The notes: generated from the letters alone by a model not told the origin. 64,000 nucleotides of DNA from Candidatus Latescibacterota bacterium (GCA_965261395.1 OZ253462.1:608001-672000); one strand, 5' to 3'; positions 1-19,035 are shown, counted from the stretch's first letter. Program-made: numbers and translations.

Positions 1-169
1 TGGTCTTGCCGGTGGGCTTTTCCAGCTTACCGAGGGCCCCTTCGTAGTTGCCCTTTTCTAGCTGTTTGAGCGAATGGGACACATAGCCCGAATAAGCGGC
101 CCCGCAACCGCTCAACCAGAGCAGCAGGACCACGCTGAGACCGATGACCGATCTGCTGCTTCCCTGCAT
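1..169 (-). CDS. Lipoprotein, N-terminal part (runs off window)
   Basis: Manual translation MQGSSRSVIGLSVVLLLWLSGCGAAYSGYVSHSLKQLEKGNYEGALGKLEK; hydrophobic signal with LSGC lipobox; alternative in-frame ATG at 205. Confidence 0.65.
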   Translation of the reverse strand, partial: MQGSSRSVIGLSVVLLLWLSGCGAAYSGYVSHSLKQLEKGNYEGALGKLEKPTGKT

Positions 170-459
170 AAGTGATTCCGTCCATTGTCCTCGCACCGGC
201 GACATGGATAAAGACTCCACGTTGGGCCCACCAGATTGACCGTGTGCCATATATAACACCTAAGCGAGGAAAAAGTGTCCCTTCTTATTCAACTTTCTGC
301 CGTCGGCGTAGCGTCCAGAACCGCTTCGACCGCGCCTTCATCCCAGCTAATCCGAATCCGCATTGCACTCCTCCTGAAAATTTGCCCAAACCTTTGAGTT
401 TTCATAATATAAGTGCCCATTTGCTGGCCGCAAAAACGCCCGTCGCACAGATAAAAATC

Positions 460-1509
460 ATGGAAAAACCCAACGTCGTCGTCATCGGTTATGGCTTTGC
501 CGGCCGCTGCTTCCACGCCTATCTAGTGGGGCTGGCCAGTGGCCTGAACCTCTACGGCATCGCCACCAGCCGGCCGCAGGCCCGCGACCAGATTCAGCGC
601 GACTTGGGGGTAAAAACCTTCCGCCACTTCGACGAAGTGCTAGCCGACCCTGCCGTCGATCTAGTCGTCCTCGCCACGCCCAACGACCTCCACGCCCCAC
701 ACGCGATCCAAGCGCTAGCGGCGGGTAAACACGTCGTCACCGACAAGCCCATGTGCTTGAGCATTGCCGAGGCCGACCAGATGATCGCCGCCAGCCAAGC
801 GCACGACCGCTTGCTCAGCGTCTTTCAGAACCGCCGCTGGGACGGCGATTTCCTCGCCGTTAAAGATGCGCTGGCCCAAGGGCTGCTCGGCGATCCCTTT
901 TTGCTAGAAATGTTCTGGGGCCAATACGGCCCCCCGCGCGGTTGGCGCAGCATAGCGCGGCACGGCGGCGGCAAATTCTTCGATCTAGGCGCGCATCTGG
1001 TCGATCAAGCCCTCCAGCTTATCGACGCGCCGCTGACAAAGGTTTACGCCACGTTCCACTCCGGCGACCCGCTCGGCCTCGACGTCGAGTCCCACGCGCT
1101 GGCTGTGCTCCACTTTGCCAACAGCGTCGAAGCCCGCGTGGAGACCTCGTCGCTGGCGTGCAAAGCCAAACCGCGCTGGTATGTACTGGGCACGGAAGGC
1201 GCGCTGGTCAAAGAGGGCGTTGACCCGCAGGAAAAGGCCATGATCGCCGGCGATATCGACGCGGCTGAAGAAGCACCCGAGCACTACGCCCGCCTCTATC
1301 GGCCAGCGGCGGGTCGGACGGCGGAAACCATCATTGAGACTACGCCCGGCCGCTGGCGTTCCTACTACGAAAACATCGCCGACGCGCTAGCCGGCCGCGC
1401 CGCGCTAGCCGTCACCGCCCACAGCGTGCGGCAGACCATGGTCGCCATTGAGGTCGCCCGGCTCTCCGCCGCCCAGCAGCGGCCTGTGTCCCCGGAGGAA
1501 GTCGGGTGA
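460..1509 (+). CDS. Gfo/Idh/MocA oxidoreductase (YdgJ/IolW-like)
   Basis: VVIGYGFAG Rossmann motif, HVVTDKPM, FQNRRWDGDF, DLGAHLVDQ; start trimmed to ATG 460. Confidence 0.9.
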   Translation: MEKPNVVVIGYGFAGRCFHAYLVGLASGLNLYGIATSRPQARDQIQRDLGVKTFRHFDEVLADPAVDLVVLATPNDLHAPHAIQALAAGKHVVTDKPMCLSIAEADQMIAASQAHDRLLSVFQNRRWDGDFLAVKDALAQGLLGDPFLLEMFWGQYGPPRGWRSIARHGGGKFFDLGAHLVDQALQLIDAPLTKVYATFHSGDPLGLDVESHALAVLHFANSVEARVETSSLACKAKPRWYVLGTEGALVKEGVDPQEKAMIAGDIDAAEEAPEHYARLYRPAAGRTAETIIETTPGRWRSYYENIADALAGRAALAVTAHSVRQTMVAIEVARLSAAQQRPVSPEEVG

Positions 1510-2096
1510 AACTCCGGCCGGGCAACTACGGCAAGGAAACCAGCTTTGAGGTCCGCACGTTCGACGCTGAGATGCCCCTCGACGAATACGCCCGCCTGCC
1601 CAAACACCCGCTCTATCTGGTGCTCGACAATTTGCGCAGCGCCTTCAACGTTGGCTCGATCTTCCGCACGGCCGACGCGGGCCGTCTCAGCGGCATCTAC
1701 ACCTGCGGCTACACGGCCCATCCGCCCCATCCCAAGCTCGACAAGACGGCGTTGGGCACCCTCTCGTACATAGAGACCCGCCACTTCGCCACCACCCTAC
1801 AAGCCATTGAGCACTTGCGCGCTCGCCAAGTGCCGGTGTGGGCGCTGGAGACGACGTCGCAAAGCCGCTGCTACACCGAGCTAGACTATCCGCGCCCCTT
1901 GGCCTTAATCGTGGGCAATGAAGCCCTCGGCGTGAGTTGCGCCGCGCTCGAACGCTGCGACGAGCTGGTCGAGATTCCCATGTACGGCTACAAAAATAGC
2001 CTCAATGTCGCCGCGGCCAGCGCCGTCCTCGTCTTTGAGGTCCTGCGCCAATGGCAGGCCGTCAGCCCCACTTGCCAGCCCACCGCCCATGCCTGA
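1506..2096 (+). CDS. TrmH/SpoU-family RNA 2'-O-methyltransferase
   Basis: LDNLRSAFNVGSIFRTAD, VGNEALG, IPMYGYKNSLNVA SPOUT motifs. Confidence 0.9.
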   Translation: MKLRPGNYGKETSFEVRTFDAEMPLDEYARLPKHPLYLVLDNLRSAFNVGSIFRTADAGRLSGIYTCGYTAHPPHPKLDKTALGTLSYIETRHFATTLQAIEHLRARQVPVWALETTSQSRCYTELDYPRPLALIVGNEALGVSCAALERCDELVEIPMYGYKNSLNVAAASAVLVFEVLRQWQAVSPTCQPTAHA

Positions 2097-3921
2097 AGCC
2101 ACCCCGAAGACTCGGGGGCCAGCCGCCCGCTTGCTCCGCGACTGGCTCGGCTTTGAGTTCGTCTCCCGCATCTATCTCTACAGCGTGCTCATCGGCCTGA
2201 TTTCCGGCTTGGGAGCGGTGCTTTTTACCTATGGCCTCGCGCTGGCCAAGTTCCTGCTAGTCGAGAAACTGGCTGGATACCGCCAGATCCATCCCGACAA
2301 CGAGGCGCTATTCGACTTCTCCTTCCTCGACGCGCCCACCTATGGCGAGTTTTTGTGGCTATTGCTGCTGCTGCCGGCGCTGGGTGGCCTGCTCAGCGGC
2401 TACCTAACGCACCGCTTCGCGCCCGAAGCCCAAGGCGCGGGTACCGACGCCATGATCGACGCCTTCCACAACCAGCGCGGGCACATTCGCCCTATTGTCG
2501 CCCCAGTCAAGGCCCTGGCGACCATCATCACGCTCGCCTCCGGTGGCGCCGCCGGTCAGCAAGGTCCTTTGGTGCATATTGGCGCGGGTTTAGGCTCTTG
2601 GATCGGCGACAAACTCAAGCTCTCGGTTGCCCAGCGGCGGATTTTGTTGCTGGCGGGCACGGCCGGAGGGCTAGGCGCAATTTTCCGCGCGCCGCTGGGT
2701 GCTGCGATCGCCAGCGTGGAAGTGCTCTACCGCGAAGACTTTGAAAGCGACGCACTCATCCCCTGCGTCATCAGCTCCTTCGTGGCCTATGCCATCTACA
2801 TAGCCGTCTTTGGCTTCTCGCATATTTTCTCCCTGCCCGACCTGCTGTTTACCGATGTGCGCGAGTTGATCTTCTATTTAGTACTGGGGTTTTTATGCGC
2901 CTTAGTTGGCATTTTTTACGTCAAGGCCCTGCGCCTTGCGCGCACCCTCTTCGACCGCCTGCCGCTGCCCCGCTACTGGGTCGTCTGCTGCGGGGGATTG
3001 CTGGTGGGGCTGGTGGCCCTTATCGATCCCCAGGTGCTGGGCGATGGGTTCGACGTCATCCAACAGGGGCTCGACGGCGAGCTCGGAGTTCGCGCCTTCC
3101 TAGCCCTCGCCCTGCTCAAAATCCTCGCCTCTAGCTGCACGGTCTCCAGCGGTGGCTCGGGCGGCGTCTTCGGCCCCTCGCTCTTTATCGGTGGGATGCT
3201 CGGCGGCGCCGTGGGCCTGCTGGGCCAACAGTACTTTCCCGACATCGTCCACCAACCAGCCGCTTATATCGTGGTGGGCATGGCCTCGTTTTTTGGCGCA
3301 GTGGCCAATACGCCGCTAGCGGCCCTGATTCTCGTCATCGAAATGAGCGGCTCCTATCACCTGCTGCCGCCGCTGATGGTCGTCAGCGCCCTCGCGCTGA
3401 TCTTCGCGCGCAACTTTTCCATCTACCAAAACCAAGTCCAAAACAAGTTCCACTCCCCGGCCCATATCAAAGACCTAACCGTCGATGTGCTGCACAATCT
3501 CCAAGTCCGCGAAGTGTTTCCCCGCCTCAAAAATACCTCCGAGGCCATCGTCAGCAATCGGCTTTCCTATTTTTCCCTGAGTTCCCTGAGCAAAAAGCTG
3601 GGCCACGTGCACTTTGTCGTCACCAATGACGACGGCGGCTTGCGCGGCATGATCAGCCTCGAAGACCTCGACCTGCCCGAAGACGAAATGCTGCGCAACC
3701 TAGTCCTCGTAGAGGACATGGTCGTCGACGACGTCGGGGCCATCGACGCGGATGACAACCTGCACGAGGCCCTGCAAAAACTGCTAGACTCTGGCTACGA
3801 CAAGCTGCCGGTGGTGGACACCACAGACGAAGGAGAAAGCGAGTTTTGGGGCTATCTGATGCACTCAGATCTGATGCGAGTGTACCACGAGGAAGTCATT
3901 CGGTTGGAGGGACAGGATTGA
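2089..3921 (+). CDS. CLC-family chloride channel/transporter with C-terminal CBS domains
   Basis: GAGTD, GQQGP, FRAPLG, GGVFGPSLFIG, NTPLA, SIY motifs; C-terminal CBS pair (YDKLPVVD). Confidence 0.9.
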   Translation: MPEATPKTRGPAARLLRDWLGFEFVSRIYLYSVLIGLISGLGAVLFTYGLALAKFLLVEKLAGYRQIHPDNEALFDFSFLDAPTYGEFLWLLLLLPALGGLLSGYLTHRFAPEAQGAGTDAMIDAFHNQRGHIRPIVAPVKALATIITLASGGAAGQQGPLVHIGAGLGSWIGDKLKLSVAQRRILLLAGTAGGLGAIFRAPLGAAIASVEVLYREDFESDALIPCVISSFVAYAIYIAVFGFSHIFSLPDLLFTDVRELIFYLVLGFLCALVGIFYVKALRLARTLFDRLPLPRYWVVCCGGLLVGLVALIDPQVLGDGFDVIQQGLDGELGVRAFLALALLKILASSCTVSSGGSGGVFGPSLFIGGMLGGAVGLLGQQYFPDIVHQPAAYIVVGMASFFGAVANTPLAALILVIEMSGSYHLLPPLMVVSALALIFARNFSIYQNQVQNKFHSPAHIKDLTVDVLHNLQVREVFPRLKNTSEAIVSNRLSYFSLSSLSKKLGHVHFVVTNDDGGLRGMISLEDLDLPEDEMLRNLVLVEDMVVDDVGAIDADDNLHEALQKLLDSGYDKLPVVDTTDEGESEFWGYLMHSDLMRVYHEEVIRLEGQD

Positions 3922-5095
3922 CCTCCTCGCTTGCTCCCTCGCGATAGGGCGCGTGCAGATAGTGCTGCGCCCGTTGGTGACTGTCCGCGTGGTCGGGCAA
4001 GCGCCGCACCCGCTGGTAGCGCAAAACCGCTTCCTCGCGGCGGCCGGCTAGGTCGTGTACTTGGCCGAGCAGCAAGTTGGCCAGCACGGCAAAAGCTAGG
4101 TCCCGCTTGCGCTCGGAATCAGCGGCGAGGCTATCGGTTGCCGCCAGATGATTGGCGGCCTCGGGATAGCGCCGCTCGAAATAAGCGTATTTGCCCGCGT
4201 AGTAATGCGCCTCCAAGCGGCCGTGGCGGTGATAGCCAGTCTGGCCGGCCACGCTGCGCCGCACGTATTCTTCGTACAAAGCCACACCCGATCGCCAGCG
4301 GCCGAGTTCGACCATAGTCCGCGCGGTGTAGCGGTGGAAGACGGCATTGTCGGGGTAGCGCGCGTAGAGTTCCTCAAAATAGGGCAGGGCCTTGCGGTTG
4401 TCCTTTTCAAAAATCCGGTAGATCTGACCTAGGAAATAGGCGGCCTCGGCGCGGGCATAGGCTCCCTCGCCGGCAACTTCCTCTAGCTGTTGGAGGCCCA
4501 GCAAGCGATCCCCGTCGGGCAAAAAGGCCATGATCGGACGGAGGATTCGGTGGCGTTGGGGCATGACCTCGGCGAAGTAGTGATACAGGCCCTGTCCAAA
4601 GAGGATGTCCTTGTTGGTCGGTTCGAGCTGACGGCTCTTCTTCAGGAGGGGCAGACCGCGCAATCCGTCGCGCGCCGCCCGTACGTACTGCTCTCTGTCG
4701 CCGTACAGACGGCCGCGGAAGCCGATGGCACCGCCCTTGAAGAGAATCGCGTCGAAGTCCATCGGGTCTTTTTTTAGACGCCGGTCGCAGACCTCAATGC
4801 ACTGCTGAAGCCGCGCGTGGAACTCCGCGTCGTAGGTTTTATCGGCCAAGTCTAGGAGGATTCGCCACCAAGAGACCATAGCGCGAAAGAAGTAGCCGAG
4901 CGGGTTGTCCGGCTCGGCCGCGACGATGGTCTGAAAGTGGCGCTCGGCCTCCTCAAAACGCAGATTGTAGGTCAGATCTATGCCCCGCTGGATGCGCGCA
5001 TCAAAGCCGCGCATCGTATAGGAGTCCTCACTCCAAGCGGGCAGAACCAGCGCGCAGCAGAGCAAAACCGCGCCTATGGGGTATAGTGCATTCAA
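3896..5095 (-). CDS. Secreted TPR-repeat protein
   Basis: Signal peptide after TTG 5095 (GAGG upstream); repeated helical TPR-like units (AAYFLGQIY, LLLGQVHDLAG). Confidence 0.7.
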   Translation of the reverse strand: MNALYPIGAVLLCCALVLPAWSEDSYTMRGFDARIQRGIDLTYNLRFEEAERHFQTIVAAEPDNPLGYFFRAMVSWWRILLDLADKTYDAEFHARLQQCIEVCDRRLKKDPMDFDAILFKGGAIGFRGRLYGDREQYVRAARDGLRGLPLLKKSRQLEPTNKDILFGQGLYHYFAEVMPQRHRILRPIMAFLPDGDRLLGLQQLEEVAGEGAYARAEAAYFLGQIYRIFEKDNRKALPYFEELYARYPDNAVFHRYTARTMVELGRWRSGVALYEEYVRRSVAGQTGYHRHGRLEAHYYAGKYAYFERRYPEAANHLAATDSLAADSERKRDLAFAVLANLLLGQVHDLAGRREEAVLRYQRVRRLPDHADSHQRAQHYLHAPYREGASEEVNPVPPTE

Positions 5096-5163
5096 GGAAC
5101 AAACCTCACCGTTCAACAGTAAGACAGAAACCAAGCCGCTCAAGAGTAGGACAAAAACAAATT

Positions 5164-6546
5164 ATGGCAACTGTGCAATGCGATATCGCGATCATCGGCG
5201 GGGGTTCGGCTGGGTACGCCGCGGCGCGCACGGCCCACGCGGCCGGTGCCCATGTCGCGGTTATCGACCAAGGCCCTTGGGGAGGGCTGTGCATTCTGCG
5301 CGGCTGTATGCCCAGCAAGGCGATTTTGCGCTCCGCCGAAATAGCCTCGCATCTAGGCCGCGCCGCCGAGTTCGGCCTAGCGCCGGTGGAAGTCCGCGCT
5401 GACTTAGCCGCCATTGTCGAGCGCAAGGCGCGGCTGGTCGCCGGCTTTGCCGCCTATCGCCGCGAGCAACTGAGCGACGGCCGCTTCACGCTCTGCGAAG
5501 CGCGCGCCCGCTTCCTCTCGCCGCAGACGCTCCAAGCCGGCGACGACGTCATTGAGGCCGGGCATTTTATCATTGCCACCGGCTCTACGCCCCACCGCAT
5601 CTCGATCCCGGGGCTGGACCACGCCGGCTACCTCACCAGCGACGAGGCCCTCGACATGTGCCAGCAGCCAGACAGCCTCCTCGTCCTCGGCGGCGGTCCC
5701 ATCGCCGTCGAGCTGGCCCAGTTCTTTCAGCGCATTGGCACACAGGTAACGCTCATCCAGCGCAGCGATCACATTCTCTCCACCGGCGACGAGGACGTGG
5801 CGCGGCCGGTTGAAGCGCGCTTCCGCGAGGAGGGCATGGAAGTGTACACCGGCACGCAACTGCGCCAATTTACCGAGGAAAACGGGCGCAAGATCGCGCA
5901 TTTTTCCCACGGCAGCGCAGAAAAAACGGCCTCGGCTGATCTCGTCCTGCAAGCCCTCGGCCGCCGCCCGCACATCGACGAGCTGGGCCTAGCGCAAGCC
6001 GGCGTCGAGGTCGCCCGCAGGCGCATTGTCGTCGATGCGGCCATGCGCACCAGCCAGCCGCACATCTACGCCGTCGGCGATGTCAACGGCGAGCACGAGG
6101 TCGTCCACATCGCCATTGAGCAAGGCGAGATCGCCGCGTACAATGCCACGCACCCCGACCGCCCCGAGCACCGCTTCGACGACCGCCTCAACGCGATGGT
6201 CGTGTTCACCGATCCGCAGGTGGCCAGCGTCGGCCTCAGCGAACGGGACTGCCGCGCTGCGGACCGACCCTATTTGGTCGCCAGCTACCCTTTTGACGAC
6301 CACGGCAAGTCGCTGACGATGGGCGAGACCTGCGGCCACGCAAAAATTCTCTGCGACCCGCGCTCGGGCGAAGTGCTCGGCAGCCATATCGTCGGCCCGG
6401 AGGCTGGCGAGTTGATCCACGAGTTGATCGCGGTGATGTACTTTCGCGGCACGGTGCAGGATTTGGCTAAGATTCCCCATTATCATCCGACCTTGGCGGA
6501 GATTCTCACCTATCCGGCCGAGGAATTAGCGGAACAGTTGGGGTAG
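5164..6546 (+). CDS. Dihydrolipoamide dehydrogenase-like pyridine nucleotide-disulfide oxidoreductase
   Basis: IIGGGSAG, GGLCILRGCMPSK redox disulfide, C-terminal HYHPTLAE; no MerA C-terminal Cys-Cys. Confidence 0.85.
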   Translation: MATVQCDIAIIGGGSAGYAAARTAHAAGAHVAVIDQGPWGGLCILRGCMPSKAILRSAEIASHLGRAAEFGLAPVEVRADLAAIVERKARLVAGFAAYRREQLSDGRFTLCEARARFLSPQTLQAGDDVIEAGHFIIATGSTPHRISIPGLDHAGYLTSDEALDMCQQPDSLLVLGGGPIAVELAQFFQRIGTQVTLIQRSDHILSTGDEDVARPVEARFREEGMEVYTGTQLRQFTEENGRKIAHFSHGSAEKTASADLVLQALGRRPHIDELGLAQAGVEVARRRIVVDAAMRTSQPHIYAVGDVNGEHEVVHIAIEQGEIAAYNATHPDRPEHRFDDRLNAMVVFTDPQVASVGLSERDCRAADRPYLVASYPFDDHGKSLTMGETCGHAKILCDPRSGEVLGSHIVGPEAGELIHELIAVMYFRGTVQDLAKIPHYHPTLAEILTYPAEELAEQLG

Positions 6547-8220: not shown

Positions 8221-11130
8221 TCAAAACTCCGTGAGAAACACCGCTTCAAAGCGCGAATCCCCTTCGTCAAAACGGTGGGCGTAGCGCAGGCCCATATCCA
8301 GTGGGATCGGCAGTGAAAAGGGATGGAAATTGGCCGTCAGCTCGGCACCGGCCGATTGGTAGATTTCAGGGGGCTGAGAGTCGTCCTCGCCGCGGCCGTA
8401 GTCATAAAAGAAGTTCACCTTGCCGCGCTTGAGGTACGCCAGCGCCCCCAAGCTCCAGTCCGGGTAGAGCAGCGGCAGGGCATAGTTGGCTGTCCCTTGG
8501 TAAAAGCGGTGGTGGAAGCGGTAGGAGTAGCCGCGGACAAAGGGCTGCTCGCTTGCAAAGCGGTAGGGGTTAGCGTCGGCATCGGCTCCTGCGGGATCCT
8601 GCCACTCGTAACCACCCTCCAGCCGCAGGCTGTGATGGGCTGCCAGACCGGGGAAGACCAGCCCTAGCTGCCCCGACAGCAAGGTGCCGTCGTAGTCGCC
8701 CGCAAAAGGCGTGTGGCGGTAGATTAGCTGCAGGCTCTGGCCATAGGCCGAGGCCAAATCGCGCGACGCCCGGTGGCGCGACCGCCCGAAGGTTAGCTGG
8801 TACGTCAGCGGCGCAAAGCGTCCGTTGTGGTTTTTTGTAAACGCGTCTTTTACTACGTCTTGGTTCGCGCTGCTCGAATCGGGCCAGTAGAGGTCGTCCT
8901 CGGCCCGGTTGAGGTTGTCCCTGCCGGCGATATCGGTCAATTCCGCCCTTGCGCTCAAATGGACGAAAGACTGCCAAGGGCCGCGGGAAAAATTCAAGGG
9001 TAGTTCGACGCCGGCTCTCAGGCTTTTCTCAGTCCACTTGTCCGTTTCTTCTTTGACCTTGAGGCTGTCGCCTTCCATTGCTCTCGTTTTGATCTCGTAG
9101 TCCTCGACCCGCTCGACCCAACGCCCGCCCGCGCTGAAAATGGGATACCACGCCGCCAAGCTGAAACCGCCCAAGACGCCGAAGGCGCTCTCGTTGCTGT
9201 TGTATTCGACCCCCCCGCTCATGTTGCTGAGATTGAGCAAATCGCTGGACGTGAGATTGAGGGCATAGCGCGGCGGCAAGGGACTGTAAGACCAGCTATG
9301 GACTTTGAGCAGATGACCCAGCGGCTGATAACTGCTCACCGGATAGGACCGTTGTGGAATGTCCGCCAATATAGGGCCGCCCTGCTCTTGGTCGATCAGC
9401 GGTTCGTAATAGCGCACTCGGCGGGCGGCGACCTGCTCAACCGGCGTCCAAGTCGCCGGGTCCAAGGGCATGGCCGCGATTCGATAGCCGTCAACGGTGT
9501 ACTCCTGGAACAGGAGCGAATCGCCAGCCACCGCCGCGTGGGTGGCCGCCAGCGGGCGGGAGGTTACCTGGTAGCGGGCTCCGCTCGGCAGGTGGACAGC
9601 GTGGATGTTGTCGAGGCCTCCATAGGGTGCATCGAATAGCAGGTAGGAACCCCAGAAGACCGGCCAGCCGATATCGGCGCTAGTATGCGGCAACACGATC
9701 TGCCCTTGGCCATCGGCAACGTCAATGCGCTCGAGCGCGTTGCCGCGTTCGTCCTGCCGCACCACGGCGACATAGCGCCCGTCTTCCGACCATCCCGGTG
9801 CGCGCCAAAAAACCCCGTCCGGAGCTGAAAAACGGGCTTGCTCCGCACCACTGGCGGTCTCCAATAGCACGAGGTGGCAGCGCCGATCCGGTCCGAATTC
9901 AACCGCGGCAATGCGCGCGCCATCAGGAGAAAGAGCAGGGGCGAACAACTTGGCCTTGTGGGTGAGTTGGCGCGTCTGGCCGCTGTCGACGTCCAGCACC
10001 ACTACATCGGAGTAGTTGCGAAAGCCCCAGCGCCGATCCGGGGTAGAGCGGTTCCAAGCCACTTTGCCGCCGGCCACGCGGATGCTGCCGAGCGATTGGT
10101 AAAAGCGCACGCGTTCCTCGCGGCCGTCGGGGTGTAGCCGCACCAGCGTCGCCGGGTTGGCCAAGCCGCTCTTGCTCGCCAGCACGCTGCCGTCGGCCAG
10201 CGGTTGCGGATATTCGTAGTTGGTCCAGATGCCCGACCGGCTCTGCCCGGCGAGCACTCGCAACGGCGTCGTGGGCAGGTCCTTTTGCTGGGTCTGCCAC
10301 AACTCGGTCAACTCGTCCATTGTCCGCTCGTAGGTCTGGGCGGCGCTGGCCCCGGTGTACTTCCTGAGCGCCCGGCTAAAGGCAAAGGGGTGGAACCCCC
10401 ACCTGGCGGTGCGACCTAGCACCTTGTCCCACGTCTCTGGACCGTAGTGGCGCTTGACGTAGGTGGTGAGAAAATATCCCAGCGGGTAGTGACTGGGGTA
10501 CCAATCGCGGTACGAGCGGAGGTGGGCCTTGTAGTAGGAATAGCGCCGTCCCGCCAAAAGCATGGCCCGAATGTCCAGATCAAACTGGGGCATGCGCCCG
10601 CGCCCGGTCTCGCTCAGCGCCGTCTCAACCCCCACCGCATCCCCCTCCCAAAACCACGGCGGCACCAACAGACCCGCTAAGGCGTAGCCCTGTTCGCCAA
10701 AAAAGAGCCAAGCCAGGCGGACGAAGCCCCGGCGCATGCGGTCGAACTGCACTACGTGGCGCATTTCGTGGACTGCCAATAGCTGGTACCACTCGCCGCT
10801 GAGCCGCCCCGCGTTTTGGGGCGGGGTGCTGAACCACACGCTGCGGCGCGGTGCCCAGGCGACAAAACCGTTGGCCTGAGTCGATTGGTTAACCAGCACC
10901 ACATCCAGCGGCTTTTGCGGCCCCCGCAGCGTTTTGGAGACTGGGCCGTAGACGTGTTCAAGCGTATTGGCTACCCGCTGGGCATCGGCGCTGATCGACG
11001 CGGGAAAAATGACTTTGAATCGCTCCGTTTGGATCTGTCGCCAGTCTAGGCCGGGCGGATTTTGCTGCGCGAATGACGGGCCGACGATCAGCACCGCCAG
11101 CGCGACTGCTTTCAGCATCTTGGTCATCAT
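8221..11130 (-). CDS. Outer-membrane protein: N-terminal HEXXH metallopeptidase-like domain, TolB-like beta-propeller, C-terminal beta-barrel
   Basis: Signal peptide; HEMRH plus PWFWEGDA; PALSPDG/PGWSEDG repeats; amphipathic strands ending in terminal Phe. Confidence 0.7.
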   Translation of the reverse strand: MMTKMLKAVALAVLIVGPSFAQQNPPGLDWRQIQTERFKVIFPASISADAQRVANTLEHVYGPVSKTLRGPQKPLDVVLVNQSTQANGFVAWAPRRSVWFSTPPQNAGRLSGEWYQLLAVHEMRHVVQFDRMRRGFVRLAWLFFGEQGYALAGLLVPPWFWEGDAVGVETALSETGRGRMPQFDLDIRAMLLAGRRYSYYKAHLRSYRDWYPSHYPLGYFLTTYVKRHYGPETWDKVLGRTARWGFHPFAFSRALRKYTGASAAQTYERTMDELTELWQTQQKDLPTTPLRVLAGQSRSGIWTNYEYPQPLADGSVLASKSGLANPATLVRLHPDGREERVRFYQSLGSIRVAGGKVAWNRSTPDRRWGFRNYSDVVVLDVDSGQTRQLTHKAKLFAPALSPDGARIAAVEFGPDRRCHLVLLETASGAEQARFSAPDGVFWRAPGWSEDGRYVAVVRQDERGNALERIDVADGQGQIVLPHTSADIGWPVFWGSYLLFDAPYGGLDNIHAVHLPSGARYQVTSRPLAATHAAVAGDSLLFQEYTVDGYRIAAMPLDPATWTPVEQVAARRVRYYEPLIDQEQGGPILADIPQRSYPVSSYQPLGHLLKVHSWSYSPLPPRYALNLTSSDLLNLSNMSGGVEYNSNESAFGVLGGFSLAAWYPIFSAGGRWVERVEDYEIKTRAMEGDSLKVKEETDKWTEKSLRAGVELPLNFSRGPWQSFVHLSARAELTDIAGRDNLNRAEDDLYWPDSSSANQDVVKDAFTKNHNGRFAPLTYQLTFGRSRHRASRDLASAYGQSLQLIYRHTPFAGDYDGTLLSGQLGLVFPGLAAHHSLRLEGGYEWQDPAGADADANPYRFASEQPFVRGYSYRFHHRFYQGTANYALPLLYPDWSLGALAYLKRGKVNFFYDYGRGEDDSQPPEIYQSAGAELTANFHPFSLPIPLDMGLRYAHRFDEGDSRFEAVFLTEF

Positions 11131-12319: not shown

Positions 12320-12456
12320 GTCGTGCCTCCTCTGCGCGAAATTGCAAAAAGGGGTCTGATTAAATACCATTAATACAATAAGATGTGCGCTTTGCTTCCT
12401 CCTACCAAGGAAGAAGCCTCTCATGTACGTCAACATCCAGCAATTTAATTTGAGCC

Positions 12457-13272
12457 ATGCGCCTCGCCTTTTACACCTATAGCTACACCGACCGGCTTGA
12501 GATGCCGCTCGAGCCGGCACTGAAGAAAATCGCCGCTACCGGCTACGACGGCATCGACATTTCGGGGACCCACGGGCCGTCGGCGGACCCGCGCTCGGTG
12601 ACGCCCGAGTTGCGTGCGCAGACGCGGAGCACGGCCGAGCGGCTGGGCCTCACCATCGAAGCCGTCATCACCCACGCCAATCTCGCTGACTCGCTCTTTA
12701 CCGACGCGCCGCTCGACCTCAAGGGGTCCGTTGATCTGGCGGTGGACGTCGGCGCACCACTCGTCGTCTTCCACATGGGTGGCCCCAAAGACGACGATGC
12801 CGTCCAGCGCGCTGAAGCTTGGCGGCGGGTGGTCGCCTATCTCCAAGACGCGCTTTCCTACGCGGAGCCTCGCAACGTGCAGTTGGCAGTCGATGGCGTG
12901 TGGGCTGGTTGGCTCGCCGACACCCCCGAGCGCTTCTTGGAGTTGCACGACGAGGTCGGCAGCACGTCCTTTGGCGTCAATTTCGATCCTTGCTATCTGA
13001 CGCTCCTCGGCTTGGATCCGGTCGCGGTCGCCCATCAGTGGCAGGGGCGCATTGTGCACGCCCACCTCAAGGACCACATCGGCACCTATCCCGACTGGGA
13101 CCACAAAATCCCCGGCCAAGGAAGCCTCGACTATCCGCGCATCGTGCAGGCGCTCAAGGACATCGGCTTTGCCGGGGCCATGGCGATAGAGACGTTTGTC
13201 ACCATGGATTTCGACGAATCCTGCGCAGTCGGCTACGCGGCGTTGACACCGGCGCTGAGCCGGGAACGCTAG
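12457..13272 (+). CDS. Sugar phosphate isomerase/epimerase (xylose isomerase-like TIM barrel)
   Basis: GYDGIDI, NFDP, HAHLKD, PGQGSLDY, IE motifs. Confidence 0.85.
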   Translation: MRLAFYTYSYTDRLEMPLEPALKKIAATGYDGIDISGTHGPSADPRSVTPELRAQTRSTAERLGLTIEAVITHANLADSLFTDAPLDLKGSVDLAVDVGAPLVVFHMGGPKDDDAVQRAEAWRRVVAYLQDALSYAEPRNVQLAVDGVWAGWLADTPERFLELHDEVGSTSFGVNFDPCYLTLLGLDPVAVAHQWQGRIVHAHLKDHIGTYPDWDHKIPGQGSLDYPRIVQALKDIGFAGAMAIETFVTMDFDESCAVGYAALTPALSRER

Positions 13273-13439
13273 CGATGTCTTGGTCTCCAGCGCGGCGACG
13301 ATGAGTATTTCCCACCCTTTCATTGACATTGCCCGATTTGAGCGCGGCGCGTGGGCCGACGAGCGCAGACGCCGACACTACAGCTCAATAGCGGCCCTTG
13401 CACCGACCACACAGCGGCGAGTATTGCTTTTTACGCCGC

Positions 13440-14311: not shown

Positions 14312-15985
14312 TTGCTACCGGACATAGAAATCGCCCGCCAAACCTCACTCCGTCCCATCGACGACGTAGCCGCCCAACTCGGGATCGGCTCCGAACACCT
14401 CGAACACTACGGCCGCGTCAAGGCCAAGATCTCGCAGGATTTCTGCCAGCAACTCGAAAACACGCCGACTACCGGCAAACTGATCGTCGTCTCGGCCATC
14501 AACCCGACTCCGGCTGGCGAGGGCAAGACCACAACCACCATCGGCCTCGGCGACGCGCTCAACCGCATTGGCAAGCGCGCCACTGTCTGCCTGCGGGAGC
14601 CTTCGCTAGGGCCTTGCTTCGGCATGAAGGGCGGTGGTGCCGGCGGCGGCTACGCTCAGGTGGCACCGATGGAGGACATCAACTTGCACTTCACTGGCGA
14701 CATCCACGCCGTCTCCACCGCGCACAACCTACTCGCCGCGGCCCTCGACAACTACATCCACCACGGCAATGTGCGCCGCATTGACCCCCGTCGCATCGTC
14801 TGGAACCGCGTCCTCGATATAAATGACCGGGCACTGCGCGATATCGTCATCGGGCTAGGGGGGACCGCCAACTCCTTTCCGCGCCAATCGGGGTTCGACA
14901 TTGCCGTCGCCTCAGAGGTCATGGCCATCCTCTGCCTCTCCGAATCGCGGGCCGAACTCAAAGAGCGACTCGGCCGGATCGTCGTCGCCCAGACCCGCGC
15001 CCGCGAAACCGTCCGCGCCGCGGACCTAGCGGTCCACGGCGCTATGGCGGTGCTGCTCAAGGACGCCTGCCAACCCAACTTGGTGCAGACCCTAGAGGGC
15101 AACCCGGCTTTAGTCCACGGCGGCCCTTTTGCCAATATCGCCCACGGCTGCAACTCCATTGCTGCCACCCGCCTGAGCACGCGCCTATCCGAATACACCA
15201 TCACCGAGGCCGGCTTTGGTGCGGACTTGGGCGTGGAGAAATTCGCCAACATCAAGTGTCGCCAGAGCGGCCTAACACCCGACCTCGTAGTATTGGTGGC
15301 CACGGTGCGCGCGCTCAAATTTCACGGCGGTGCCACACTCAAACGCATTGCCAAACCCAATGTCGGGGCGGTTGAACGGGGCGTCGAAAACCTCAAGAAG
15401 CACATCGAAAACATCCGCCTCTTCGGCTTGCCCGTCGTCGTCGCGGTCAATGCCTTCGCCACGGATACCGACGACGAGATCCAGTCCATCCACGACAAGT
15501 GCGCTCACCTCGGCGTTGAGATCGTCCCCGCGGATCACCACGCCCGCGGCGGCGCTGGTGCCGAAGACCTCGCCCGCACCGTGGTGCAGGTAGCCGAAAA
15601 CACGCAGAGCGACTTCAAGCTCCTCTATCCCAACGACATGCGGCTTTGGGACAAGGTCCGCACCGTCGCCCAAGCCATCTACGGCGCCGACGACATCATG
15701 GGCGACAAGCTGCTGCGGAACAAGTTCCGGCGGCTGGAGGACGAAGGCTACGGCAACTTGCCCGTCTGCATAGCCAAGACCCAGTACTCGCTCTCGACCG
15801 ATCCCGGCCTCAAGGGGCGGCCGCGCGGCTTTGACGTGCCGATCCGCGACGTCAAAGTCTCGGCCGGGGCCGGCTTTGTGGTGGTGCTGACAGGCGATAT
15901 TATGACGATGCCCGGCCTGCCAAAGAAGCCCTCGGCCGAGTCGATTGATCTCGACGAAGCAGGACAGACCAAGGGGTTGTTCTGA
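14312..15985 (+). CDS. fhs: Formate--tetrahydrofolate ligase
   Basis: [53 protein letters not shown]; AGGAG RBS before TTG. Confidence 0.97.
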
Positions 15986-16024
15986 GAGGGACACAGAACC
16001 CGTAACCACACAGGACAACGGACC

Positions 16025-17389
16025 ATGTCATTCTCAAAGCGACTGGAATCGTGCTCTCTCGAACGCATTACCAAGATGAAGGATGTGGTAATGCAGGAGA
16101 TAGATAGTATTGACCGTCAGCTAGCCGAAAAAGAAAAAGAGCTCGACGAAATGATCGAGAAGGTAGAGACGGTCAGTTTGAGCAAGAGGCACGGCCAATA
16201 CGAACTGAATCTGGATAAAGCTGAATCGCAGCTCGATAGGTTAAACGCCGAAAAAGATAAGCTGCTAGACAAGGCCGCGATCATTGAGGAAGCACGGCAA
16301 AAGAAGCACCTGATGAACCAACAGGCGCGGGTGCTTGGCAGTACCAAAAGGGTGATGGTCAAAGACATGCTCATCTTTTTCCTCATCCTTTTTATTATTG
16401 GCATTCTGGTGGTTGACTTACTCGGCATTGGGGCCACTGGCGGCGGGGCCGTTGCCCGAGCCGAAGTTGAGGACGGCCAGATACGCCGAGTCGTCGTTCT
16501 GAGTGAGGGCACTAGCTACGAACGGGTGAATATTGAAATAGAGGACAAAGTGGGGTCTGGTGCCTTGGTTACCGGGCAGGTCGTCGAGGGCAAGCTAACC
16601 CAAGCGGAAGTCATTGAGGCCGGCGAACACTACGTCAAGCCCACAGTGGAGATCGCGCCCCACTTTGCAGTCGGCAAGCTATGGCTATTTTGGATCCTCG
16701 ACGTGATCTGCTGCACGGTTTTTATGGTCAACTTCTTTTTTGAACACGCCCTCGCCGCGTCCAAAAAGTGGTACTGGAAGCGCAACTGGATCGACTTCAT
16801 AACGTCCATTCCGCTGCCTCCAGTGCAAGTCATTGCCGCGTCCGGCCAACTGGAGTTTGTCCGCCTTGGGCGTCTGCTCCGGGCCATGCGGATTTTGCGG
16901 GCGCTGAGAGTGTTCCGCATCGCGCTGTTTTTCTGGCGGGGTATGGACCATTTGAGCTCCACATTGGACGTGAGGCTCCTCAAGCGATCCCTGTTGTACG
17001 GCTTGTTATCGCTCGTGTTTGGGGCCTGCATTTTCATGAGCTTGGAGCGCATGGATTCTGGTTCGGGATTCTGGGCGAGTCTTTGGTGGAGCTTTACGAC
17101 GCTGGTCACTGGCGGGTACGCCGACATCCACAATCCCGAGACGGCTTCGGGCAAAATCCTCACCGTTTTTCTGGTGATTACGGGTATGGTTCTGGTGGGT
17201 GTCTTTACGGCTACGCTGACCAGCATCCTCGTAAGCGACGAGGATTCCTTGAAGGTCGAGGAGCTAGAAGAGCAGGTCGGGATCGTAACGAAAATTCAGG
17301 AAGACATAAAAGACACCAACGAGCGTCTAGACCGGCTGGAAGGTACCATCCGCGAAATCCGGGACGCCGTGGCGGCGCAGGAGAAATAG
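16025..17389 (+). CDS. 6TM voltage-gated ion channel (Kv-like) with atypical filter and extracytoplasmic insertion
   Basis: NWIDFI (S3), S4 RLGRLLRAMRILRALRVFR, pore helix SLWWSFTTLVTGGYADI, S6; N- and C-terminal coiled coils. Confidence 0.85.
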   Translation: MSFSKRLESCSLERITKMKDVVMQEIDSIDRQLAEKEKELDEMIEKVETVSLSKRHGQYELNLDKAESQLDRLNAEKDKLLDKAAIIEEARQKKHLMNQQARVLGSTKRVMVKDMLIFFLILFIIGILVVDLLGIGATGGGAVARAEVEDGQIRRVVVLSEGTSYERVNIEIEDKVGSGALVTGQVVEGKLTQAEVIEAGEHYVKPTVEIAPHFAVGKLWLFWILDVICCTVFMVNFFFEHALAASKKWYWKRNWIDFITSIPLPPVQVIAASGQLEFVRLGRLLRAMRILRALRVFRIALFFWRGMDHLSSTLDVRLLKRSLLYGLLSLVFGACIFMSLERMDSGSGFWASLWWSFTTLVTGGYADIHNPETASGKILTVFLVITGMVLVGVFTATLTSILVSDEDSLKVEELEEQVGIVTKIQEDIKDTNERLDRLEGTIREIRDAVAAQEK

Positions 17390-17397
17390 CGGCGGCT

Positions 17398-19035
17398 TCA
17401 GGCGAGCTTTTCTCTAGCTTCCAGGACTTTTGCCACTACTACTTCGACATCCTTTTCATCCACAAACGGCGACACGATAAAGGACTTCAGCGCGACAATC
17501 GGTTCCTGATATTGGGTGTGCCGGTAGCAGTCGGTCGAGGAAAGGATGACCCCGCGTCCGGCCATGGCCTCCGCATGCACGTACTCGAAAATTTTTCGGT
17601 TGTAGTCGTTGTGGGCTAGCAGCGTCTCCCGATAGGCAGGGTCGTCGAATTCTTGGCGCTTGATCGCAAAAGTATCCACGTCGGGTGGATATACCCGGAA
17701 GAGCGTTACCGTGCCAAAATTGTCGCGGTTGAGTACGGTGATGGCTTCGTGTCCTTCGAGGTGCTCGCGCAAAAGCTGGGTCATCTCGACCGTGTGCCCG
17801 AGTGCGACGCGCAAGCCCTGCTCGCCGAAAAAGCGAAAATTGGCCAGCGCAGTTAGCGGGCCGGTCCCGGCTCTGGATGTTTCGAGAGTGTACATGCCGG
17901 GGCGGTGGTCGCCAAAGTGATAGAGGTACGGCATCTGCTCCGGGCTGCGTATCAGTAGGTGCAAATCCGTGCGATCTTTGACGAGGACCAGGCTGGAGAT
18001 ATACGGGGCAAAGCCGGTCTTGTGGAAGTCAATGCCCATGGAATCGGCCAGCGCCAGATGGCGGATGCGCCGGCACGCTCCAGCGAGAGCGCGCAGGGTC
18101 CGCGGTCGAAACTCCAAGGGGTTGTCCTGAAAATCGTAGTCGTTGAACACCGACCACGCCCAGCCAATGACCGCGTCGGCGTGGATGTGCGGGCGGTAGG
18201 AGAGTTGGAATTCATCGACGAGCGAGTCGCGCAAGGCCGCAATCGCCTGCAAGTCGTCCAAGCCGAACGCATCCGTAGTCCCCATAGTCGCAATAATGGC
18301 GGCGATCTTTTTTCCGCTATCCAAGGCCGCCCGCGCTGCATCCGCTAGCTGCGCGAGGTCGATTTCGTTGTCGGCTATCGTCGGAATGACGATCAACTGG
18401 TCGGTGCCAATGCCGAGCCAGCCGACGATGTTGTGGGCGCAATAGTGCCCGGCGTCGGAAACGAGGACCACTACATCTTTAGGTACGCCTTGGTCCATGG
18501 CCCGGGGGCAGGCTTTTTCCAGACCGATCTTTACCCCATAGAGCGTGGTGCCGGTGCCGCCAAAGGTAAACGTGCCGCTGGCTTGTTGTGGGTCGTAGCC
18601 AACCATCCGCGCGGTAATGCCGACCGCTTCGACTTCGGCCAAGGCGACGAGGCGGCTGTATTCATCCCAAGCGATGTTGGGGTTGTGCAACGAGGCGAGT
18701 AAGACGCCGATGAGGCTGGGAATGGTCGGGGGCGCGATGACGTTTTGTTGGGTGTGGGGATGGCTGGAGATGGTTATGCCGCGCAGGTAGCTGACGAGGT
18801 CTGAGGTAACTGCCTCGACCGAAGACATCTCAGCGGGCAACTCGGCGTTTTGCGCTTCAGCAAAGTCGCCAGCAACCACCGGACCAAGCGTCGGCAACTG
18901 CATTTTCAGCGCATCGACCTGGTCTAGGGCGCGCATGATGGAATGCACGAAATACGAATCGTGAATGGGGTCGGATACTGGTTGGGGGAAGGCGCGGCGG
19001 ATGTGTTCTAGGCTGTCGCGGTAGGATGTGGCCAT
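17398..19035 (-). CDS. Group II PLP-dependent amino acid decarboxylase
   Basis: FTFGGTGTTLYG, ATMGTTDAFGLDDL, HADAVIG, ADSMGIDFHK (PLP Lys), TLETSR. Confidence 0.88.
   Translation of the reverse strand: MATSYRDSLEHIRRAFPQPVSDPIHDSYFVHSIMRALDQVDALKMQLPTLGPVVAGDFAEAQNAELPAEMSSVEAVTSDLVSYLRGITISSHPHTQQNVIAPPTIPSLIGVLLASLHNPNIAWDEYSRLVALAEVEAVGITARMVGYDPQQASGTFTFGGTGTTLYGVKIGLEKACPRAMDQGVPKDVVVLVSDAGHYCAHNIVGWLGIGTDQLIVIPTIADNEIDLAQLADAARAALDSGKKIAAIIATMGTTDAFGLDDLQAIAALRDSLVDEFQLSYRPHIHADAVIGWAWSVFNDYDFQDNPLEFRPRTLRALAGACRRIRHLALADSMGIDFHKTGFAPYISSLVLVKDRTDLHLLIRSPEQMPYLYHFGDHRPGMYTLETSRAGTGPLTALANFRFFGEQGLRVALGHTVEMTQLLREHLEGHEAITVLNRDNFGTVTLFRVYPPDVDTFAIKRQEFDDPAYRETLLAHNDYNRKIFEYVHAEAMAGRGVILSSTDCYRHTQYQEPIVALKSFIVSPFVDEKDVEVVVAKVLEAREKLA

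Follow-up and report, generated by a model that had tools for sequence, protein, structure and literature searches.

The bacterial voltage-gated channels studied to date have, to our knowledge, bare S1-S2 loops. In polycystins, this loop is the TOP domain, which is about 200 amino acid residues (aa) long. The TOP domain of polycystin-2 is described as an extracellular loop between the first two helices that matters for channel function (PMC10192930). This study concerns P0001, a six-helix channel with a folded insert at the equivalent place, whose gene lies in a 64,000-nucleotide stretch of DNA from a Candidatus Latescibacterota bacterium (GCA_965261395.1 OZ253462.1:608001-672000; the whole stretch is called the window here). 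The insert is made of two beta units that resemble a repeat of T4-like phage virions. With a probability of about 0.6, P0001 stands for a family of K+-type voltage-gated channels that is rare and patchy in its distribution and whose voltage sensor bears an accessory module in the periplasm. The gene and the two units of the insert are as follows.

16025..17389, + strand: whole gene of P0001, stop codon included, encoding a 454-aa six-helix voltage-sensor cation channel (translation of the open reading frame (ORF) and Pfam)
16430..16546, + strand: first beta unit (unit 1) of the insert between S1 and S2, residues 136-174 (hidden Markov model (HMM) of phage-only units; three strands in both models)
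16547..16663, + strand: second beta unit (unit 2) of the insert between S1 and S2, residues 175-213 (HMM of phage-only units; three strands in both models)

Together, the two units of ~38 aa occupy residues 136-213 (16430-16663). They align with each other without gaps and are identical at 10 of 34 positions (29%; BLASTP E 2e-5 as a single comparison). The helix that precedes the insert is assigned as S1, because in the insert-less relative P0253 the Ion_trans match runs from profile position 7 through the equivalent helix into S2. The 24 residues ahead of S1 (residues 90-113) include seven K/R and no D/E. Given this basic stretch and the positive-inside rule, the S1-S2 loop would face the periplasm, to which the insert, acidic in P0001 with an isoelectric point (pI) of 4.7, should be exposed. 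In the models, only a few linker residues separate the insert from S1 and from S2. An initial annotation, made from the sequence alone, had placed two tandem units of about 38 aa between S1 and S2. Both peptides that it quoted are present, as residues 139-165 and as residues 177-203 with 206-210, and its coordinates of 16430-16660 correspond to residues 136-212. Its suggestion of an extracytoplasmic module on a voltage sensor is also borne out, as far as topology can be predicted from the Ion_trans envelopes and the positive-inside rule.

The unit HMM was built from 180 units of non-channel proteins only. It matched unit 1 of P0001 at residues 138-174 with 34.5 bits and unit 2 at residues 177-212 with 33.7 bits. 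Because a model made from non-channel units alone recognizes both units of the channel, their likeness goes beyond chance. Searched alone against PHROGs, the insert (86 aa) matched PHROG 2885, annotated as "baseplate wedge subunit", at E 5.5e-9, PHROG 701 at E 8.5e-6 and PHROG 438 at E 2.9e-4. A search of 1.84 billion representatives at E <= 1e-3 identified 132 proteins. One of them, P0082, represents the cluster of the channel itself. The remaining 131 ranged from 109 to 7903 aa, and none of them contained a channel core; 129 carried 1-32 units with a spacing of mostly 37-41 aa. Moreover, the insert aligned without gaps to 21 two-unit phage-type stretches at identities of 29-39%. The motif of the units is GxGAxAxAxV..GxI..I.V...GxGY..P.V.I, as the initial annotation had stated for baseplate and sheath proteins of T4-like phages, and the phage-only HMM, PHROGs and BFVD agree with this attribution.

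Of 28 repeat-bearing proteins scanned against Pfam, 20 had no family at all and none had a family over the repeats. PHROGs matched all 28, but since the repeat itself accounts for most of these matches, they are circular. Phage parts outside the repeat were, however, found in 8 of these proteins: a tail sheath in P0123, the N-terminal part of a baseplate wedge in P0124 and P0125, head closure Hc3 in P0133, P0138 and P0151, and collagen-type fibres in P0155 and P0157. A Pfam search with 97 aa of the insert gave no family even at E values of up to 10, and NCBIfam had no model for either the insert or the repeat protein P0127. Sequence searches of the Protein Data Bank (PDB) with the insert, P0127 and the profile of alignment A2 (described below) returned chance rows only, such as DsbA at E 0.048 and OXA-1 at E 1.3. 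Thus, the virion repeat of ~38 aa looks to be without a name or a solved structure. In addition, none of 50,697 phage records was matched by the insert in tblastn at E 1e-3, so that no close phage donor is known.

A model of the insert was folded from alignment A2, which combined 11 channel inserts with the 21 two-unit phage-type stretches. It had a predicted local distance difference test score (pLDDT) of 91, a predicted template modelling score (pTM) of 0.78 and six strands, three per unit. A channel-only model showed the identical six strands. The two units are therefore predicted to fold together into one compact six-stranded module. Foldseek comparison of this model with BFVD gave 18 rows at E <= 1e-3 (TMq 0.78-0.87; root-mean-square deviation 0.8-3.9 Å), which included structural proteins of Synechococcus phages S-ShM2 and ACG-2014d, a baseplate wedge subunit and Stenotrophomonas phage Mendera. 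The weaker rows included a cyanophage neck protein, the wedge initiator of phage Bellamy and the phiM9 sheath. Hence, the Foldseek search that the initial annotation had proposed for the insert led to phage structural proteins. The best Foldseek row against the PDB reached only E 0.5. Among 48,161 chains compared by VIA-align, the best had a Z of 4.2 and were generic Ig/FN3/filamin sandwiches, which is no proof of a new fold, and the best score in the ESM Atlas was 0.77, below the useful level.

The related genomes are metagenome-assembled genomes (MAGs) of Candidatus Latescibacterota, a few of which are recorded as Gemmatimonadota. The repeat was present in 50 of the 168 Latescibacterota genomes searched. 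In 49 of these, the single match was inside a frame of 456-621 aa, which is the channel; in the window's own genome, the repeat occurs at P0001 only. The exception, G118, has the repeat on a 5.3-kb contig in a Latescibacterota bin (L072; contig C272, 1-5295). This contig consists of a single frame of at least 1764 aa that is open at both ends, with three repeat units near its start as well as virion-type PHROG, fn3 and cupredoxin-like matches, and it is possibly viral. Within the genus of the window, 20 of 25 genomes, G000 counted, contained the full-length channel.

A search seeded with the relative from Roseibacillus persicicus found family proteins of 469-493 aa, two of which are named Verrucomicrobiales, and the family was found in 2 of 201 sampled genomes of the Roseibacillus order. 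The two-unit insert is at the same place in Latescibacterota, Verrucomicrobiales and further clades (P0269-P0274; L050/L059). One MAG, recorded as Pseudomonadota, has two near-identical insert-bearing channels on two contigs (L050:2626-3999 and L059:3861-5201), which are 57% identical to P0001. Applied to 29 family proteins, the phage-only HMM detected two units in 25 and one in the fragment P0268, with none in P0253, P0254 and P0264. Since the module is common to distant channel clades at the same place, it does not look like a recent insertion but like a conserved part of the family; whether homologous channels carry it was a question of the initial annotation, and the answer is yes, across several clades. 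In a tree of 30 rows, made with the insert columns removed, the fragment P0268 left out and a very long outgroup, the insert-less pair P0253/P0254 was placed beside the Verrucomicrobial clade with a support of 87/61. Early capture of the insert with later loss in Roseibacillus is favoured but not shown by this placement, and the module was probably captured once, early in the history of this rare channel family.

The ratio of nonsynonymous to synonymous substitution rates (dN/dS) was estimated by region with NG86 from 706 non-independent pairs of 48 orthologues, from which the distant or partial L050, L059, L060 and L063 were left out. The dN/dS was 0.19 for the insert, 0.23 for the N-terminal region, 0.22 for S1 and 0.19 for the C-terminal coil. 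In the membrane core, it was 0.08 for S2-S4 and 0.06 for the pore, and 75% of the columns of the pore domain were invariant among the 48 orthologues. Thus, purifying selection acts on the insert as it does on the coiled coils. None of the 48 orthologues is a frameshifted or truncated copy. The invariant positions of the insert are fold-making Gly/Ala/Tyr/Pro residues, while its outward positions take 5-8 different residues. This pattern of variation is easier to reconcile with a scaffold-like role than with a single conserved binding site or with an arms race.

The remaining parts of the channel are as follows.

16025..16342, + strand: cytoplasmic N-terminal helical/coiled-coil region, residues 1-106 (model helices 12-47 and 54-104)
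16343..16429, + strand: basic pre-S1 stretch and helix S1, residues 107-135 (model helix 107-133; Ion_trans coverage in P0253)
16664..16963, + strand: S2-S4 of the voltage sensor, residues 214-313 (sequence and cross-clade alignment)
16964..17239, + strand: pore domain with S5, pore helix and S6, residues 314-405 (Ion_trans_2 at 328-403)
17108..17125, + strand: place of the selectivity filter, TGGYAD, residues 362-367 (sequence and alignment A3)
17240..17386, + strand: cytoplasmic C-terminal coiled coil, residues 406-454 (model helix 376-453)

The ATG of the gene has an AGGA 10 nt ahead. P0001 matched the Pfam families Ion_trans (PF00520; residues 220-401, E 1.6e-15, 57.4 bits with a cut-off of 25) and Ion_trans_2 (residues 328-403, E 8.8e-11, 42 bits with a cut-off of 22.5), of which the former begins only at profile position 34. 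No NCBIfam model matched P0001 at E <= 0.01. At least 120 homologues of P0001 were found, with lengths of 437-460 aa and identities of 67-99%. The N-terminal region is alignable across phyla and has a conserved turn motif around H56-D64, in which H56, G57, Y59, E60, L61, L63 and D64 are invariant in the homologue alignment A1. S4 has an arginine at every third place (R280, R283, R286, R289, R292, R295 and R298). All seven, together with D226, F237, E240 and D257, are invariant between clades and even phyla in alignment A3, and we take the roles of the S4 arginines and of the acidic residues of S2/S3 to be those of their counterparts in Kv1.2. The canonical K+ channel filter is TVGYGD (T-[VI]-G-[YF]-G-D); the filter place reads TGGYAD in P0001 and TGGFGD in the Verrucomicrobial relatives.

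A full-length model was built from 26 channel homologues, with a mean pLDDT of 61 that is poor for the pore. It contains helices at 12-47, 54-104 and 107-133, followed by S2 (216-243), S3, a long S4 (281-313), S5 and a pore helix (349-362), and S6 continues into the C-terminal helix, which ends at residue 453. Six strands lie within residues 142-213. The best Foldseek rows of this model against the PDB were weak and were Kv channels, with Kv4.2 at the top (E 1.5e-3, below the tool's line). Judging from these features, P0001 is a putative subunit of a tetramer-type six-helix voltage-gated cation channel and probably prefers K+ despite the unusual TGGYAD filter.

The most probable account of how the family came to be and how it works is as follows. 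The S1-S2 loop would have been replaced by the two-unit beta module, which would ride directly on the voltage sensor via the short linkers. Its units belong to a repeat family that is otherwise found in arrays, of up to ~30 units, on the exposed regions of virion proteins of T4-like phages, namely sheath, wedge, neck and fibres. Captured early, the module would since have been retained by purifying selection in several phyla. Most likely, it serves as a fixed accessory ectodomain that shapes or stabilises the outer face of the voltage sensor, and it may also touch an envelope component and so bias gating. Such a placement would be comparable to that of the polycystin-2 TOP domain and of the Ig-like accessory domains of phage proteins.

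Several observations weigh against this reading. First, the full-length model is a poor monomer model and gives no view of how the module would pack on a tetramer, and the filter differs from the K+ consensus at two places, which bears on the ion preference. Second, the likeness of the insert model to phage models is partly built in, as phage rows were part of alignment A2. Third, the module is dispensable in Roseibacillus, where the S1-S2 loop of P0253/P0254 is only ~15-20 aa, and the insert of P0264 is degenerate or decayed. Moreover, an approximately unbiased (AU) test did not reject a position of the insert-less pair with the outgroup (p 0.234). Fourth, the net charge of the insert is not conserved (pI 4.1-9.4), and channel alignments revealed no channel-specific surface motif common to the clades; the variable charge and the lack of a shared motif argue against one conserved partner. 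Finally, 14 of 52 loci have defence genes near the channel, for which this reading has no explanation other than chance or the flank of a hot spot.

The alternative that survives best, though it is still improbable, is a sensor for a specific periplasmic ligand or glycan, in which the module would bind a small molecule or polymer and gate the channel in the manner of a chemoreceptor. From its position on top of S1-S2 and with its very short linkers, the module would pass binding on to S1/S2, and the stretch Y165-N169, whose invariance is specific to the Latescibacterota clade, could be a site. Between clades, however, only fold-making residues are conserved, with a charge that ranges from acidic to basic. 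In addition, the module has just ~78 aa and no match to a pocket-forming family, its best match being to the Ig/FN3/filamin folds mentioned above. In favour of such a sensor, accessory beta domains on phage sheaths have been proposed to mediate adhesion or to provide stability, in a paper that does not mention this repeat (PMC9230969).

Slightly less probable still, the insert could be a neutral passenger, a stable mini-domain of phage origin that was kept in a tolerant loop because it is harmless. In channels of this type, no part tolerates changes in length better than the S1-S2 loop, and the loss of the module in Roseibacillus and its degeneration in P0264 left the rest of the channel intact. 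Moreover, the insert is no more conserved than the coiled coils. A passenger would not, however, be expected to stay in frame and foldable in four clades with overall identities of 40-46%, nor to have both units still matched by the phage-only profile in 25 of 29 proteins. Similarly, the dN/dS of the insert is far below 1, and frameshifted or truncated copies were found in 0 of 48 orthologues.

The genomic context bears mostly on a third alternative, a phage-sensing channel of abortive infection. In the window, the channel gene starts 39 nt after that for formate-tetrahydrofolate ligase (fhs) and converges on the gene of a pyridoxal phosphate (PLP) decarboxylase, beyond which are genes for a TonB receptor, ftsY, queG, rseP, cdsA and uppS. 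Genes for GFO and SDR oxidoreductases are upstream. Three members of the genus that were compared directly have the same order, as do 27 of the 52 loci of the cluster map. At E <= 1e-3, PADLOC had no family for P0001 and none for its 7 neighbours, apart from P-loop noise in FtsY. In 12 other loci, the order is moaC-moeA-[variable]-channel-MFS-PD40 protein-HNH. The variable block of 11 of these (L033, L038, L041-L043, L045, L054-L056, L058 and L061, with the block at ~1-6000 and the channel from ~6001) contains AbiEi, SoFic, type I HsdR or HsdS, or HEC-01A/B. These hot-spot loci belong to Latescibacterota genera other than that of the window. Overall, a PADLOC-type gene was within 6 kb of the channel in none of the 27 loci with the order of the window, in 11 of the 12 with the moaC-moeA order and in 3 of the remaining 13. 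The resulting 14 of 52 is a lower bound, as naive ORFs were used and annotation was limited to clusters of at least two and a few singletons; moreover, the loci are related to one another. Because the cargo varies while the channel stays, the channel is a fixed flank of a defence hot spot and not its cargo. The association between channel and defence genes is weak and is no evidence of defence.

The base composition of the gene also differs from its surroundings. The G+C content is 0.537 for the channel gene (0.684 at third codon positions, GC3), 0.615 for the insert and 0.58-0.65 for the neighbours (GC3 0.72-0.81). A recent foreign origin was considered from these values, and the bias is too mild to argue from. 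Between genus members, the channel gene is 80-89% identical and the flanking genes are 87-95% identical.

In a phage-sensing channel, the module would recognise either a component of the virion or the damage that a phage tail causes to the envelope, open the channel and depolarise the cell. The initial annotation had suggested a phage sensor on a membrane-depolarising channel, and such a role is very unlikely. Several points speak for it: outside this family, the module type is found almost only on phage particles; the genes near the channel in the hot-spot loci and elsewhere encode an Mko/Hhe-like helicase as well as AbiEi, SoFic, type I HsdR/HsdS and HEC-01A/B; the family has a scattered occurrence, being present in just 49 of the 168 genomes of Latescibacterota and in 2 of the 201 from the Roseibacillus order; and the G+C content of the channel gene is below that of its neighbours. 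PADLOC was, however, empty for the channel and its neighbours, no defence gene was among the annotated clusters of the 27 loci with the order of the window, whose synteny is one of housekeeping genes, and the 12 loci of the other order are kin and not independent cases. Thus, the search for a defence island gave a divided answer: it found none at the loci with the order of the window, and in 11 of the 12 loci of the other order the channel does border a variable defence block. Moreover, the module is old, its regional dN/dS of 0.19 carries no arms-race signal, the channel gene stands alone, none of its partners being conserved from one context to another, and a full voltage sensor with seven arginines suits a physiological channel. 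The module is, therefore, not likely to be a dedicated phage sensor. A single-gene envelope sentinel, whose module would bind a matching repeat or partner on a T4-like tail or sense a breach, force the sensor and depolarise the cell, is just as unlikely; if true, it would be a voltage-gated-channel class of anti-phage defence that is situated beside a defence hot spot in some lineages.

Some further features of these loci were observed. HsdR proteins of 1305-1385 aa with a fused C-terminal Schlafen AlbA_2 domain are encoded at L042:784-4698 and L049:1703-5857. L050, one of the 3 remaining loci with a PADLOC-type gene, has, after the channel, a gene for a 917-aa Mko/Hhe-like helicase with an REase_MTES_1575 end. 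In the window, an ORF of 969 aa (8221-11130, - strand) had no Pfam or PADLOC match and is 27% identical over ~600 aa to the PD40-repeat protein that is downstream of the channel in other genera (L009/L042). Two ORFs of 271-294 aa overlap on opposite strands (12445-13329, - strand; 12457-13272, + strand), of which the one on the minus strand had no Pfam match and is conserved in L010 with 75% identity.

A scan of positions 15800-17600 identified no promoter-like site and four terminator-like sites where 1.9 were expected, none of them between fhs and the channel, and is uninformative. Four metatranscriptome runs, which belong to three studies, have contigs that match parts of the gene, the insert included, at 90-100% likeness (e.g., 16018-16541 and 16552-16839), and a 195-nt piece (16216-16410; run X8) was identical to the window. 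These contigs are a weak hint of transcription, and contigs in RNA libraries are no proof of it.

A literature search, judged from titles and abstract openings, turned up no paper that describes the repeat or a channel of this kind. Among anti-phage systems, RexB of RexAB, ZorAB of Zorya and the CARF pore Chp1 are membrane proteins whose opening depolarises the cell. None of them is known to be a six-helix channel with a voltage sensor, and they act with partner proteins or signals that are encoded adjacently. Different from RexAB, Zorya and Chp1, P0001 has no partner gene and no PADLOC match.

Compared with the phage virion repeat, the insert of P0001 is similar in motif, period, predicted three-strand unit and two-unit packing. 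This repeat lies in PHROGs 2885, 438 and 708 (baseplate wedge), 701, 19630 and 4406 (virion structural) and 460 (head closure), with a structural protein of Synechococcus phage S-ShM2 and the baseplate wedge initiator of phage Bellamy as examples. The phage proteins, however, have 1-32 units in soluble arrays, whereas P0001 has exactly two in a membrane-protein loop of a cellular gene. In addition, the Y-T-x-P-T of phage units is replaced by Y-E-R-V-N in unit 1 of the Latescibacterota clade. P0001 is a channel of the cell, encoded at a chromosomal locus with conserved synteny, and no virion protein; what it shares with the phage proteins is a domain, not a protein family. A very abundant, unnamed and structurally unsolved phage virion repeat thus appears to have been taken into a cellular membrane protein, and the two-unit module of 78 aa would be a small handle for the structure and binding of the repeat.

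Similar to six-helix K+ channels of the KvAP type, P0001 has an S1-S4 sensor with an arginine at every third place, counter-charges in S2/S3, a pore helix with a filter, and S6. The identity is ~30% over the core only (E ~1e-8). To the KvAP plan, P0001 adds the N-terminal helical region of ~105 aa, the C-terminal coiled coil and the S1-S2 module of 78 aa, and the filter of its family is TGGYAD or TGGFGD instead of the TVGYGD of the KvAP type. The same genome also encodes a plain KvAP-type channel of 281 aa with a TVGYGD filter and a C-terminal CPHC motif (L065; G000:C1:163991-164500). The insert-bearing channel is thus a second, distinct voltage-gated channel of this genome.

Similar to the polycystin and mucolipin channels (TRPP and TRPML) with their TOP domains, P0001 is a predicted six-helix cation channel with a folded extracytoplasmic domain in the S1-S2 loop. 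The TOP domain is, however, much larger and forms a ring over the pore, the module of P0001 belongs to another fold family, and no TOP-type chain was among the Foldseek and VIA-align rows of the insert model against the PDB. The resemblance would be one of analogy and not of homology. A family with a folded periplasmic domain on its voltage sensor could nevertheless serve as a simple prokaryotic model for the tuning of a channel by an ectodomain, as TOP does in polycystins.

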